A stretch of 61,460 nt of DNA, counting the filler, from Bdellovibrionota bacterium (lineage in GTDB: Bacteria; Bdellovibrionota; Bdellovibrionia; Bdellovibrionales; JAEYZS01): assembly GCA_963169515.1 (NCBI GenBank). It is 4 parts of 4 records of this genome, joined end to end, with 100 filler letters (N's around TTAATTAATTAA, not from the genome) between each part and the next. Parts side by side here need not be neighbours in the genome. Positions count along the whole stretch, not along the records: positions 36,012 to 55,110 come from CAUJEF010000030.1; 3 more parts are not named here. One strand, 5' to 3'. The notes beneath the pieces are model-generated. The model made no database searches. It had not been told where the DNA came from and saw nothing but the letters and a program-made list of their open reading frames with translations. Each line of letters starts with the position of its first letter. The first letter of the stretch is position 1. Shown piece after piece: positions 15,481 to 55,696 of this stretch. Position numbers and translations under genes: made by a program.

Positions 15481-15580
15481 NNNNNNNNNNNNNNNNNNNN
15501 NNNNNNNNNNNNNNNNNNNNNNNNTTAATTAATTAANNNNNNNNNNNNNNNNNNNNNNNNNNNNNNNNNNNNNNNNNNNN
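15481..15580. other. Artificial contig linker
   Basis: N-run containing TTAATTAATTAA (stops in all six frames). Confidence 0.99.
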
Positions 15581-35911: not shown

Positions 35912-36011
35912 NNNNNNNNNNNNNNNNNNNNNNNNNNNNNNNNNNNNNNNNNNNNTTAATTAATTAANNNNNNNNNNNNNNNNNNNNNNNNNNNNNNNNN
36001 NNNNNNNNNNN
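35912..36011. other. Artificial contig linker
   Basis: N-run with TTAATTAATTAA. Confidence 0.99.
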
Positions 36012-50415: not shown

Positions 50416-52269
50416 ATGAAATCTGATGATTTTGTTGGTTCTCAGAGGAGCTCTTTCATGAAGCTTTTTTCGATCACAGTTGCGGCAGTTGGTCTTTTTG
50501 TAAGTCAAGCGGATGCTCAATATATAAACGCAGGTGCCTACGCATCGATGGGAATGTACAATGCCTTTCCGGGTTGCGGCTATCAAACAAACACGATGAA
50601 TGTTTACGGATACAAGCAAGAGGTACTGGAACTTGATAGACAAATCAAAGAAGTAAAAAAAGAAATTAGTAAGCTTGGAACGACGAATGATGATGACGAC
50701 ACAAGCGGTGACTATGTTACTCATTTTAAAGCCAATGTGGAGGAATTCCTTAAAGACACCGCTGCTGATGATTGTAGTGCGTTTATTAAGGTTGTAAATG
50801 AGACTTGTAATGCCCAAGGAATAATTGTCACAGCAACTACGGAAGTTGCGCAAAATCCACCACAACAGCCAACGTGTCCTAACGCAAATTATGGTGACCC
50901 ATCTAGGTTTTGTAAGGGCGGTAAAAAAGTCAATCTTGCAAAAATGTGTACGGACCTTGATTTGTACGATCCATCCCCAGGAAGGAAGGATTGGATTGAA
51001 AACTGTAAGGATTTTGTGGAACAGCTGGCAGAGCTGAACAATGATCTCAAAGAACTAGAGGCTGATCGAAGGGAAGCGCAAAAAGATTACGTTGAAGCAA
51101 AGCGTGAGGAAAATGAGGAAAAGCGTGAACGTAATCGCGCTCGCCGTCGTGGTGAAGTATATGTCGAAGGCGGCTGTGCAACTTGCGGAATGGGTCGTCG
51201 TCGAGAATCAAAAACGGATTGGGGCGCCGTTGGTGTTGGCGCGGTCATGGATATCGGGATGGCTCTTTTGAATAGAAATAACATAAGACGTATTTCTGAT
51301 AATAACGCTGAACTTGGATTTGCTACCAGCCCGTACGCAGCGTTTGGTTACGGTTATCCGTATGCAACAGCGGCTGCATTGTATGGTGGACGTGGCGGAT
51401 ACTACGGCGGCGTTTATGGTGGGCTTGGTGGCGGAGCATTTGGTTGTGCTGGAACGATGGGATATCCATCGCCGTTCGGCCCCATGGGAATGGGCGGAAG
51501 CCCGTACGGGATGATGTATAACCCCTATGGACAAATGGGTGGAATGTTCGGTTATCCGGGCGGACCTGGTTATCCAGGATTTAATCCATATTTAGCAGGC
51601 GGAATGATGACCCCGGGATTATTTCCGGGAGCAGGTGGAATTGGCGTTGGTGCAGGAATTTACGCTGGCCTTGGCGGACCATTCGGCATGGGAATGGGCG
51701 GACCATTTGGTGGAATGATGGGAATGCCTGGTATGGGCGGTTATGGTATGGGCGGTTATGGTATGGGCGGCTACGGCATGGGTGGGCCATTCGATGCTTA
51801 TGGTGGACTCATGGGTGGGGTTGGCATGGGTGGCGGAATTTTTGGACCCGGTGGCATGGGAATGGGTGGAATGGGCGGACCGTTTGGTGGCATGGGCGGT
51901 ATGATGTGTATCACGGCACCATGTCCTGGCGGAATGGGTATGGGCGGAATTTTTGGTCCCGGTGGTTATGGTGGTATGGGTGGTATGGGCGGTATGGGTG
52001 GAATGATGGGTGGCGGACAATATCAAATGCAATTTATGCAGATGTATATGGAAATGCAGCAACGTGAAATGCAAAACCAAATGGGTCGATGGCAATCTTA
52101 TCAGTCTTTACAACAAGAAATGATGATCCTTCAGCAGCGTATGTATCAGGTTTTATACGGCGGTTCACTCGGAATTGGCGGTGGCGGTTTTCTTGGTGGC
52201 GGAAACTTTGGCGGGAATAGCCAAGTTCCTATTGGAAACCCTGGAAACCCTTCTGGCGGTGGCCGATAA
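50416..52269 (+). CDS. Secreted coiled-coil and Gly/Met-rich low-complexity protein
   Basis: 617 aa; signal-like segment ending ADA; Cys-containing region, charged coiled coil, long GMGG/GYG repeats, Q/M-rich helix; alternative start 50458. Confidence 0.85.
   Translation: MKSDDFVGSQRSSFMKLFSITVAAVGLFVSQADAQYINAGAYASMGMYNAFPGCGYQTNTMNVYGYKQEVLELDRQIKEVKKEISKLGTTNDDDDTSGDYVTHFKANVEEFLKDTAADDCSAFIKVVNETCNAQGIIVTATTEVAQNPPQQPTCPNANYGDPSRFCKGGKKVNLAKMCTDLDLYDPSPGRKDWIENCKDFVEQLAELNNDLKELEADRREAQKDYVEAKREENEEKRERNRARRRGEVYVEGGCATCGMGRRRESKTDWGAVGVGAVMDIGMALLNRNNIRRISDNNAELGFATSPYAAFGYGYPYATAAALYGGRGGYYGGVYGGLGGGAFGCAGTMGYPSPFGPMGMGGSPYGMMYNPYGQMGGMFGYPGGPGYPGFNPYLAGGMMTPGLFPGAGGIGVGAGIYAGLGGPFGMGMGGPFGGMMGMPGMGGYGMGGYGMGGYGMGGPFDAYGGLMGGVGMGGGIFGPGGMGMGGMGGPFGGMGGMMCITAPCPGGMGMGGIFGPGGYGGMGGMGGMGGMMGGGQYQMQFMQMYMEMQQREMQNQMGRWQSYQSLQQEMMILQQRMYQVLYGGSLGIGGGGFLGGGNFGGNSQVPIGNPGNPSGGGR
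51730..51786 (+). repeat. 15-nt coding tandem repeat (GMGGY)x3 plus a partial unit
   Basis: GGTATGGGCGGTTAT x2, GGTATGGGCGGCTAC, GGCATGGGTGGG. Confidence 0.9.
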
Positions 52270-53634: not shown

Positions 53635-53638
53635 GCTG

Positions 53639-53744
53639 CCGAGGCCCCGATCAACCCCTTGGGTTTTAACTAAAGAATTTAGAGTTCCAAGCCCGCCCTA
53701 GGACTACCTCAGTATTTCATAAAGAAAATAAACCAACTTCCCAA
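53639..53744 (+). repeat. 106-bp direct repeat, copy 1
   Basis: Identical to 55004-55109. Confidence 0.97.
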
Positions 53745-53844
53745 AGAGAACGAACAAACGTACAACACTCCAAAGGCCGTTAAGTTTATGGAGAATCTTC
53801 CGATCATTAACGTAACAAAGCTTGGGTGCTTTTCTACGTTTCAT
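53704..53844 (-). CDS. 46-aa cationic amphipathic peptide, candidate type I toxin
   Basis: AGGAGG SD 4 nt upstream of ATG; MKRRKAPKLCYVNDRKILHKLNGLWSVVRLFVLFGKLVYFLYEILR; 3' end duplicated. Confidence 0.7.
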   Translation of the reverse strand: MKRRKAPKLCYVNDRKILHKLNGLWSVVRLFVLFGKLVYFLYEILR

Positions 53845-53848
53845 ATCG

Positions 53849-53921
53849 CCTCCTGTCTCCAAGGAGGACCTACCATAGTCCGAAGTCAATCGAGCCCCGG
53901 CACTATGGTAGTTGCAGTGTA
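53849..53921 (-). promoter_or_regulatory. Structured 5' UTR: -10 box, leader hairpin and SD-sequestering hairpin
   Basis: TACACT at 53921-53916; CUACCAUAGU/ACUAUGGUAG stem (53911-53870); CCUCCU/AGGAGG stem (53867-53849). Confidence 0.7.
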
Positions 53922-54209
53922 TAGATGCCATTCAAATGGATTTTAAATTTATCTCGAGAATGCTACGTCCGAAATACGGACATTCAAGCCTATCATGGAG
54001 ACGAAAGGCTGCGTTATAAAGTCAGTGTATTTGGGTTGCTGTTGGGAATAAAAGCCATCCTTTTTTCAGAAATTCAGAGTTGTTAAAAAGTTTGACGTTG
54101 AAGCTTTAGACAACTCTATCATGCTTACAACCAATATTTACAAATAATTTTTGATCGAGTACAACTCAGGAAACAGGAAAGGCCCTGTGGATCTAAAAAG
54201 GAATTTTAT

Positions 54210-54866
54210 ATGAAGCCTTGCTTTTCAAAAATGATATTTGTGATCGCTGCATTGATTATTACTGAGGATTTCGCCCAAGCTAATCAAATAAAAATTACCG
54301 ATAAGACATGTGACCTTTTTGTTTTCGCAGAGGTTAGCGGGCTTGCGTACAGTCAAGTATTGCGGGTGGATACCCAACCTGGTCAGCTGCTTCCGCAAAC
54401 TATTGATTATGGCGACGATCGTCAGACTATTGCAACTGCCCAACAAATTTTGCCGATACTCAGCCAAAAAGGCTATAACGTCTTAGCGAATTCATCTGCC
54501 AGACGAGATAAAGGTTACGACCCCGAGTTCAAAGAAAAGCTTATCGCCAGTGACGATTTTTTATTCTTATATTTCATGGATGCTATTGGCTATCCTCCAT
54601 CATCTGGCGAAAGCTTTCTCGGCTTCGGCGGGGGCACACCGGGCCATGTTGTCGAAATGGGAATTGTGCGCGTTCAGCATAAAGCCGGACAAGGTCCATG
54701 GAACGAATACCCGGGTTACACTTTTGTGGTCGGCGAGGCCAATAAAACATTAGCCAAATTATGCAATCAAAGGGGCGGTAGTTATAAAATGAAAGAGTGC
54801 CGATTCCCTTCCTCTGATCTTGTAGAAATGGCTAAGGCTTTGCCCGCTTGTCGCTTATCCAATTAA
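54210..54866 (+). CDS. Hypothetical secreted protein between the direct repeats
   Basis: AAGGAA RBS, signal peptide ending AQA, 218 aa. Confidence 0.75.
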   Translation: MKPCFSKMIFVIAALIITEDFAQANQIKITDKTCDLFVFAEVSGLAYSQVLRVDTQPGQLLPQTIDYGDDRQTIATAQQILPILSQKGYNVLANSSARRDKGYDPEFKEKLIASDDFLFLYFMDAIGYPPSSGESFLGFGGGTPGHVVEMGIVRVQHKAGQGPWNEYPGYTFVVGEANKTLAKLCNQRGGSYKMKECRFPSSDLVEMAKALPACRLSN

Positions 54867-55003
54867 ACCCCGAGCGTCGATCAACAATAAGGTCAGTAAT
54901 TTTTTGCAAAGATTTACTGGCCTGATCGGGCATGCGGTGGAGTAAAGCCATCATTCCTCTAAAGTCCTAATCATTATTAAGGCAGAAGAATTTTTTAAAA
55001 GCA

Positions 55004-55109
55004 CCGAGGCCCCGATCAACCCCTTGGGTTTTAACTAAAGAATTTAGAGTTCCAAGCCCGCCCTAGGACTACCTCAGTATTTCATAAAGAAAATAAACCA
55101 ACTTCCCAA
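55004..55109 (+). repeat. 106-bp direct repeat, copy 2 (cut by contig end); contains the 3' end of a second peptide ORF
   Basis: Identical to 53639-53744; minus strand encodes ...GKLVYFLYEILR* with the stop at 55069-55071. Confidence 0.97.
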
Positions 55110-55110
55110 G

Positions 55111-55210
55111 NNNNNNNNNNNNNNNNNNNNNNNNNNNNNNNNNNNNNNNNNNNNTTAATTAATTAANNNNNNNNNNNNNNNNNNNNNNNNNNNNNNNNNN
55201 NNNNNNNNNN
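55111..55210. other. Artificial contig linker
   Basis: N-run with TTAATTAATTAA. Confidence 0.99.
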
Positions 55211-55515
55211 GCCCACATTCCGATTTGAGCAGGCCATTTTGAAACCATAAGTATTGCAAGTGCGTAGCGAAAAGCTTGGTGCCAATAGTTATCGCCACTA
55301 ATTCCTTTTGTATATATCCAGACAAAAGACCAGGAAAAGATAAAATTTCCAAACCATGCAACCCACATCCATTTTTGCATTTCATCTTCCGGCTTCCAAA
55401 ACTGCGCTGTAGATTGGTACAGACCACCTAACCACCATCCATGCAGAACCCAGTCTGTGACAAACATCACAAGCCAAACTGCGATGACAGAAAACCAAAA
55501 TTTCTTATTTTGCAT
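55211..55515 (-). CDS. Hypothetical Trp-rich membrane protein (3' truncated)
   Basis: GGAGGA RBS, ATG 55515, several hydrophobic helices. Confidence 0.75.
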
Positions 55516-55696
55516 ATACAAATCCTCCGTTGATTTTATTTTGAGGCCCTTCCTTTGGACCCATACCGAGAAGTGTATTAAAGAATGTGCAAATGGCAAG
55601 CCAATAAATCAGTTCAGTTTAGAAATTGCGAAATCATCGCGACTCTTTTTAATTTTTTCTGGTATAACATGATATGGCAGATGTAGTATACAGGCC

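Follow-up and report, generated by a model that had tools for sequence, protein, structure and literature searches.

A candidate type I toxin–antitoxin family of Bdellovibrionota with a predicted FliA-type antitoxin promoter inside the toxin reading frame

Several described toxin–antitoxin (TA) systems of type I resemble the locus analyzed here. The closest are the aapA/IsoA systems, which, in the accessible portions of the papers that describe them (PMC6733600, PMC5416894, PMC8594479, PMC8309996), are multicopy chromosomal loci with an antisense RNA that lies within the span of the toxin mRNA, covers the 5' UTR and the start of the ORF, and has its promoter inside the ORF. Their mRNAs sequester the Shine–Dalgarno (SD) element and pair their 5' and 3' ends over a long distance, cognate partners are recognized through loops, and the peptide is a cationic amphipathic helix; each of these properties has an observed or predicted counterpart in our locus. 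As far as the accessible text of the sources goes, our locus also resembles the ibs/Sib paralogues of E. coli, which discriminate among cognate mRNAs via highly variable domains, one of them in the ORF (PMC2943612), and hok/Sok of plasmid R1 and its relatives, in which 5'–3' fold-back and 3' processing form the route to activation (PMC6733600). A likeness within the phylum is offered by APsRNA3, 6, and 7 of Bdellovibrio bacteriovorus, small RNAs from FliA promoters (PMC3627812, accessible part). In the accessible text of Fozo et al. 2010 (PMC2887945), strain HD100 has no type I locus of a known family and a single candidate, the 54-aa Bd3114, which could possibly belong to the family described here. 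Judging from titles and the beginnings of abstracts in the literature within reach, we found no type I system in Bdellovibrio and none with a sigma28 antitoxin or a sigma54 toxin; Bdellovibrio is unmentioned in the T1TAdb text and two of its three supplements, and a term search of the accessible text of PMC5430801 returned no match.

Anatomy of the candidate locus and of its genomic copies

The locus lies in a Bdellovibrionota bacterium genome (GCA_963169515.1), in what we call the window, that is, the whole stretch of DNA analyzed (61,460 nucleotides, filler included). A first-pass annotation of the sequence had proposed a type I TA locus of an unrecognized family. This remains the best explanation, and a candidate antisense gene can now be placed. 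We put the probability that the locus is a chromosomal multicopy type I TA pair of an unnamed family at roughly 0.8, with its toxicity and both of its RNAs predicted from sequence. The parts of the locus are as follows.

53704..53844, minus strand: 46-aa peptide ORF, stop included; putative membrane toxin, cationic, helical, and hydrophobic (family HMM E 8.6e-12).
53780..53805, plus strand: candidate FliA/sigma28-type promoter for the antisense RNA, within the ORF; TTAAG-N15-CCGATC, assigned by the B. bacteriovorus consensus and the family test.
53814..53920, plus strand: predicted antisense RNA (antitoxin), ~105 nt; start placed by the ~9-nt spacing in mapped Bdellovibrio FliA promoters.
53809..53840, minus strand: ORF-start hairpin with a 6-nt loop (53822-53827), the putative copy-specific recognition loop.
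53849..53867, minus strand: SD (53854-53849) paired with an upstream anti-SD (53867-53862) in the fold prediction.
53870..53920, plus strand: 42-nt hairpin (53870-53911) and short U-tract, the probable intrinsic terminator of the antisense RNA.
53885..53902, minus strand: long-distance helix, 5' arm; 53902 is the start predicted 12 nt past the TGC element.
53637..53655, minus strand: long-distance helix, 3' arm; the window copy stops here, without the ~25-nt tail of other copies.
53914..53930, minus strand: candidate sense promoter region, TGGCA...TGCA, where the family has a sigma54-type GG-N10-GC; spacing 12 here, TACACT included.
53960..53987, minus strand: GTCCG-N5-CGGAC hairpin of the REPIN-core type of this genome, between the halves of an alternative sigma70-like pair, TTGAAT-16-TAGCAT.
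53983..54053, no strand assigned: ~70-bp motif that forms the repeat's left end and has 27 matches genome-wide, mostly without the peptide gene.
54979..55110, minus strand: second element copy, represented by its 3' part including the tail and truncated at the contig end.

All five features that the first-pass annotation described are present in the sequence. The CCUCCU/AGGAGG hairpin is present (53867-53849), with SD bases paired at p 0.87-0.97 in the computed fold, and the ORF (53844-53704) has the claimed 11 K/R and 2 D/E, with polar residues at R15, N22, R29, K36, and E43. The proposed 5'–3' duplex has 18 pairs and one bulge (-27.1 kcal/mol), four of the pairs being G.U by hand count; the adjoining GGACUA/UAGUCC pairing recurs in the predicted fold, where the 3' hairpin that it loops out (53658-53691) is weak (-3.9). 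The leader hairpin and the 5'–3' helix do exclude each other, and the two conformers are nearly isoenergetic. A TACACT box and a 10-bp stem were located as claimed, at 53921-53916 and 53911-53902/53879-53870, but some readings need correction. The exact sequence of the box is not conserved, other copies having TAAACT or TAATTT, and a plain sigma70 -10 box is improbable as the sense promoter; the stem, which the annotation called a leader hairpin, more likely terminates the antisense RNA. The likeness to hok and aapA folding extends to the 5'–3' helix and to SD sequestration as such, but in the predicted folds the SD is held by a local hairpin and not by the 5'–3' helix.

The locus belongs to a ~430-460-bp repeat that is present in this genome in at least eight copies (five full, two internally deleted, termed C78 and C81, and one truncated where its contig ends), which are dispersed and about 87-94% identical. 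Complete ORFs are intact in 7/7 copies and encode 46 aa, but 53 aa in C81. Both deleted copies have lost the leader structure together with the sense promoter region. The 6-nt loop of the hairpin at codons 6-8 differs in all seven copies, with a diversity (pi) of 0.667 versus 0.066 for the rest of the ORF; aligned in register, antisense and sense loops pair at 6/6 positions in cognate combinations and at no more than 4 in all 42 non-cognate pairs. The idea that the variable loop guides insertion to a site was rejected, as the flanking DNA has no match to the loops at any shared position. The first-pass annotation had also raised the possibility that the complementary arms are the terminal inverted repeats of a MITE. 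They are not terminal: they are set in by about 150 nt from the left end of the repeat and by about 25 nt from its right end, their pairing uses G.U on one strand only, and no target-site duplication was seen by eye.

The gene neighborhoods of the copies and of the family loci share no function. In the window, the locus is situated between a convergent amidohydrolase gene and a divergent ORF of no known family, a 218-aa ORF (54210-54866) that is bracketed by the first and second element copies in direct orientation. This ORF has a signal-peptide-like start and no Pfam match and forms a singleton protein cluster. For a protein neighboring the window locus, the nearest Atlas clusters are mostly from Bdellovibrionota. 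Elsewhere in the window, 50416-52269 encodes a 617-aa protein with long Gly/Met/Pro/Tyr-rich repeats, a coiled-coil N-terminal half, and no significant Pfam match. The window joins several contigs, its N spacers occupy 15481-15580, 35912-36011, and 55111-55210, and an ORF spanning 55159-55599, like the second element copy, is cut at the last of these. Around C78, whose internal deletion is supported by one short contig from the sequencing runs, an HTH antitoxin gene and a small upstream ORF (L016:12243-12656) directly precede the deleted copy; by eye, we take these to be a DUF4258-like type II TA pair.

The ~70-bp motif at the left end of the repeat (core TCATGGAGACGAA-N-GCGTCA) is found at 53983-54053 in the window and at 26 other places in the genome, mostly alone and in many cases adjacent to genes of type II TA systems, an HNH gene, recA, lexA, tRNA genes, or ORFs of unknown function; fragments of the HTH antitoxin gene mentioned above adjoin it at C19, C137, C142, C145, and C155, and in places it forms direct or inverted pairs around single genes. 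It was not found as a repeat elsewhere, the 51 single matches in unrelated genomes being taken as chance. Y1_Tnp/RAYT matches number twelve in the genome, which also has at least five REP/REPIN families, several of them flanking their own transposase, and many of these REPs and REPINs share a GTCCG-N5-CGGAC inner hairpin. The GTCCG/CGGAC hairpin occurs at 34 sites with a spacer of 5 versus at most 2 sites with any other spacer; its interpretation as a LexA box was rejected, as it is absent upstream of lexA and is the REPIN core.

Distribution of the family and properties of its peptide

Similarity searches returned no relative of the window element outside this genome. This holds for a DNA search of 60 relatives, for JGI metagenomes, IMG/VR, and GTDB contigs, and for phage and plasmid collections. 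A peptide profile (alignment A1) gave only 8 weak matches (E 0.002-0.01) among 389 genomes of the class, the protein database held only 2 near-identical records, a set of 1.84 billion representative proteins yielded one near-identical and one repetitive 551-aa match, and a covariance model searched against 149 relatives produced one 59-nt match (E 0.004). We therefore searched 390 class genomes for the architecture instead, defined as an SD, an ATG, and then a FliA site as read on the coding strand. Two such searches matched 10/390 and 14/390 genomes, and the reversed control matched 0 and 1. True members were found in nine other genomes, including one with 15 copies (G170), one with 5 (G020), one with 3 in tandem (G288), and one with 2 (G385) that belongs to another order than the window genome. 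Pattern matches in G089, G097, G098, G100, G329, G372, G171, G216, and G380 were rejected as non-members, as were all 56 viral pattern matches. The first four of these genomes (L131-L134), which are related to one another, have a conserved 20-codon ORF with an SD over an antisense FliA-type site; this ORF lies outside the family, and the site is probably the promoter of a divergent gene.

A profile built from 22 peptides matched 88/390 class genomes at E<=1e-3; of 178 genomes from other classes, none matched at E<=1e-4. Members have so far been found in one class of Bdellovibrionota only. By taxonomic family, the matches fall into 72/182 genomes of f10, 6/109 of f6, 0/26 of f2, and 2/6 of the window's own family; the best-sampled genus has matches in 16/44 genomes. 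One member was labeled "Bdellovibrionota bacterium" by its source. Loci were inspected from 36 of the 88 matched genomes, of which three (G099, G191, and G196) had no qualifying ORF and the other 33 contributed 67 ORFs that have an SD and score 18 bits or more, counts that are non-independent where genomes are related. Copy number across the family ranges from 1 to 15 per genome, and in G170 the 14 copies compared have 14 distinct loops.

Family peptides are 33-47 aa long (one is truncated to 26 and one extended to 53), have a net charge of +4 to +11, and share a Leu/Ile-rich amphipathic helix. The window peptide has a best 19-residue Kyte-Doolittle mean of 1.78 and is modeled by structure prediction as a single helix (residues 7-45, pLDDT 80); it thus has what is expected of a type I toxin, being shorter than 70 aa, hydrophobic, helical, and preceded by an SD of its own. 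Neither the family alignments (A1, A4, and A6) nor 16 individual loci used as queries matched Pfam, NCBIfam, PDB sequences, or Rfam, no PHROG match was found, and the database entries that are members have no Pfam domain and are named "hypothetical protein" at most. Matches to YydF, YqhR, and other single-member families were rejected as matches of composition; in the ESM Atlas all scores were under 0.9, and that of TisB (0.77) was at chance level. Selection on the peptide is evident in other lineages, where dN/dS downstream of the promoter codons is 0.08-0.39 (six partly overlapping groups). The copies in the window genome show no detectable purifying selection, with a pN/pS of 0.77-0.80 across the ORF, which counts against the TA reading; over their last 23 codons dN/dS is 1.21, from few changes and a pS of only 0.068.

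Predicted promoters and RNA folds

Sigma70 and sigma54 were considered first for the plus-strand motif in the ORF, which was then recognized by its resemblance to the sigma28 consensus of E. coli. In the window copy this site reads TTAAG-N15-CCGATC (53780-53805), one base off the CCGATA of the other six copies. Exact TTAAG-N15-CCGATA occurs at 6 sites in 4.75 Mb (both strands), all in element copies and antisense to the ORF, and the same motif with other spacers from 10 to 20 occurs at 0-7 sites. The genome encodes FliA and six flagellins, three of which have such a site at 2-3 mismatches. For B. bacteriovorus, the accessible part of PMC3627812 gives an attack-phase consensus of TTAAG-N16-CCGATA, attributes it to FliA, and assigns to FliA two thirds of the mapped attack-phase promoters; in its promoter table (supplement 3, by eye) transcription starts ~9 nt past CCGATA, which leads us to predict an RNA of ~105 nt that starts at about 53814. 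This RNA would comprise the variable hairpin first, then the region of the start codon and SD, and end at the hairpin 53870-53911. In B. bacteriovorus fliA is about tenfold higher in attack than in growth phase, at about 990 versus 104 RPKM (column order inferred), and if this holds in the uncultured organism studied here, the antitoxin would track the swimming stage; expression of rpoN is seen in both phases, at about 169 versus 270 RPKM under the same inferred column order.

The site is a property of the family, being present within 1 mismatch in 53/67 ORFs. Among the 29 loci (23 genomes) that were found by the peptide only, 15 have a FliA site at this same stringency versus 6.4% after synonymous codon resampling. 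CGG encodes the Arg residue of the site in 56/67 cases versus 25/196 for other Arg codons, which argues that the DNA motif is selected and not the residue. An antisense hairpin with a U-tract is found upstream of the SD in 57/67 loci versus 2/67 for a 3' control region, supporting the proposal that the 10-bp leader hairpin probably terminates the antisense RNA. A promoter and a terminator that delimit an RNA complementary to the toxin mRNA, as an antisense RNA gene requires, are thus present as predictions. Against this stand weak points of the window genome: the FliA -10 element of the window copy is one base off, its U-tract is weak (4 U in 9 nt), and five of the seven copies fail the terminator test. 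Four sequencing runs (three RNA-labeled, one DNA) each contributed 1-5 short, low-depth, unstranded contigs.

Upstream of the hairpin, 45/67 loci (25/33 genomes) have GG-N10-GC, the spacing of sigma54 promoters, and the next commonest spacing occurs in 6/67. RpoN and canonical sigma54 sites are present in the window genome. In all five of its full copies, and at one locus of G001 (L221), the GG-GC spacing is 12, which sigma54 should not accept. Spacing 12 occurs in two genera of one taxonomic family, and one G288 copy has 11. We suggest that the sense promoter is of the sigma54 type in most members, with the noncanonical spacing counting against this assignment for the window copy; the TAnnnT box, kept in 5/5 full copies as three variants, and the TTGAAT-16-TAGCAT pair further upstream remain alternatives. 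A start 12 nt after the GC would be 53902, the first base of the 5'–3' helix, and an mRNA starting there would not form the 10-bp leader hairpin.

Folding of the region as a whole is not unusual (z -1.59, 12/200 shuffles as good), a point against the TA reading. The sense strand nevertheless folds 8-45 kcal/mol better than the antisense strand in all 20 constructs of five copies, and the 32 long-range pairs in this genome's copies include 45 G.U versus 4 A.C cells. The consensus fold of five copies recovers the 5'–3' helix, and from the predicted start at 53902 all five full copies fold into it (16.8-20.8 pairs). Among the family genomes, the cognate 5' UTR–3' UTR duplex ranks first of 33 in 15 genomes (expected 1) and in the top three in 19/33 (expected 3), the 14/33 outside the top three being counted against; 5'–3' pairing is kept across unrelated sequences of the class, and here, as with the terminal inverted repeats, the refutation foreseen in the first-pass annotation did not occur. 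Two-sided changes affect 17/90 pairs among the five G020 copies, one of them within the long-range helix, but 0/94 pairs among the five full copies of the window genome, which again counts against.

Computed folds pair the SD with a probability >0.5 in 31/33 genomes, locally in 17, and on this modeling the SD of the primary transcript would be occluded. A distal anti-SD in the 3' tail is found in 2/4 tailed copies, which is not above chance, so that occlusion of the SD by the long-range helix, as in aapA, is unsupported. With one shorter 3' end, opening the ribosome-binding site costs 5.0-5.8 instead of about 8-9 kcal/mol in 4/5 copies, lending modest support to activation by 3' trimming, which we infer by analogy.

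Proposed mechanism, alternatives, and relation to known systems

We propose that a ~270-nt minus-strand mRNA is transcribed, the promoter being of the sigma54 type in most family members, and that a local hairpin would shut its SD during transcription, after which the 5' and 3' ends of the finished mRNA would close into a stabilizing long helix. Trimming of the 3' end or refolding would yield the translatable form, by analogy with aapA and hok. From the promoter written in the Tyr-Arg...Leu-Lys/Asn codons, FliA would transcribe the ~105-nt antisense RNA, the 5' part of which would meet the copy-specific loop, zip over the start codon and SD, and block translation; RNase III would probably cleave the duplex. 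The antisense RNA would be short-lived and the folded mRNA stable, such that a drop in FliA transcription or the loss of a copy would allow the peptide to be made, enter the inner membrane, and slow or kill the cell. Divergence of the loops would make each copy depend on its own antitoxin, and such dependence would explain expansion to 8-15 copies. A difficulty for the model is that, with the antitoxin gone in growth phase, the predator would apparently be poisoned while it grows. We tentatively entertain a further possibility, in which the mRNA comes from sigma54 and the antitoxin from a sigma28 promoter in the toxin codons, and the peptide, released when attack-phase transcription stops, serves as a life-cycle checkpoint or a prey-directed membrane peptide rather than as a selfish addiction module only.

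The same RNA control could instead serve a peptide that is a life-cycle effector and not a self-toxin, silenced by the FliA-driven antisense RNA while the cell swims, made after prey entry, and acting on the membrane of prey or predator. The dominance of FliA among attack-phase promoters of B. bacteriovorus (PMC3627812, accessible part), the fliA and rpoN values given above, and the cationic, amphipathic nature of the peptide agree with such a role, and the type I peptide SprA1 lyses other bacteria externally (PMC8309996, accessible part). We consider it unlikely, given that we noticed no export signal in the peptide, that the patchy presence (16/44 in the best-sampled genus, 0/26 in f2) fits addiction better than core predation, and that a copy number of 1-15 and copy-specific loops likewise fit addiction modules better. 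It is less probable still that the FliA-driven plus-strand RNA is the main product and the ORF secondary, the RNAs then making up an sRNA family that acts in trans in attack phase and carries a variable seed loop. The antisense promoter and terminator are indeed the best-conserved DNA features, and FliA-dependent sRNAs are known in B. bacteriovorus (PMC3627812, accessible part), but 33 genomes retain the SD, the start codon, the length, and the amphipathic pattern, with dN/dS of 0.08-0.39 downstream of the promoter codons, structure is biased to the mRNA strand, and no common position in the flanking DNA matches the loops.

The dispersal of copies at about 87-94% identity, the 12 Y1/RAYT transposase matches and many REPINs in the genome, and the REPIN-core hairpin and 27-copy end motif carried by the element could all be read as signs of a non-autonomous mobile repeat of the MITE or REPIN type, with ends folded for transposition and an incidental ORF. 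This interpretation is largely refuted and very improbable: the arms are internal, rich in G.U on one strand, and without target-site duplication, and relatives keep the peptide, promoters, and pairing despite no DNA similarity being found. REPIN-type machinery may nonetheless explain the spread of copies in this genome. Mutually exclusive alternative hairpins around a short ORF also recall a leader peptide or attenuator for a neighboring gene, yet the adjacent genes are unrelated, and many of them are convergent or divergent, the window being one such case, and we regard this as scarcely credible. We thus return to the type I TA pair as our preferred reading.

If it is correct, this would be, within the reach of our searches, the first type I TA family in Bdellovibrionota and the first type I system with a flagellar-sigma antitoxin and a sigma54 toxin. 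It would connect a membrane-active peptide with the attack/growth switch in bacteria under development as living antibiotics, and culturable Bdellovibrio makes direct testing possible. Up to 15 paralogues per genome with distinct 6-7-nt loops would constitute a natural library for the evolution of antisense specificity. That the family was missed by protein and DNA similarity and seen via its promoter-in-ORF architecture suggests a route to other hidden type I families.

Set against the known systems, the family differs in several respects. Sok is located 5' of the toxin ORF according to the accessible text, whereas the antisense RNA predicted here overlaps the ORF, and the peptide has no Pfam match; the upstream ATG seen in many members falls in all three frames, so that a conserved equivalent of mok is absent. 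Sib covers the whole ORF and Ibs has ~19 aa (accessible text), and we found no sequence similarity to either. The eight small RNA sequences of B. bacteriovorus in Figure S1 of PMC3627812 are, by eye, without the layout of this family. The differences from aapA/IsoA concern sequence, with no match to PDB, Pfam, NCBIfam, or Rfam entries (homology being judged via database entries); peptide length, 33-47 aa versus 30 for AapA; promoters, the antisense promoter being FliA-type here and TATAAT-type there, and the sense promoter sigma54-type in most members here; the variable loop, which is in coding sequence here and in the 5' UTR there; the SD, which predicted folds hold locally in about half of the members here; and host range, Helicobacter and Campylobacter versus Bdellovibrionota. 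Our best reading is that the family is organized like Helicobacter aapA/IsoA but is probably not homologous to it, and that it is a member of neither aapA/IsoA nor ibs/Sib.
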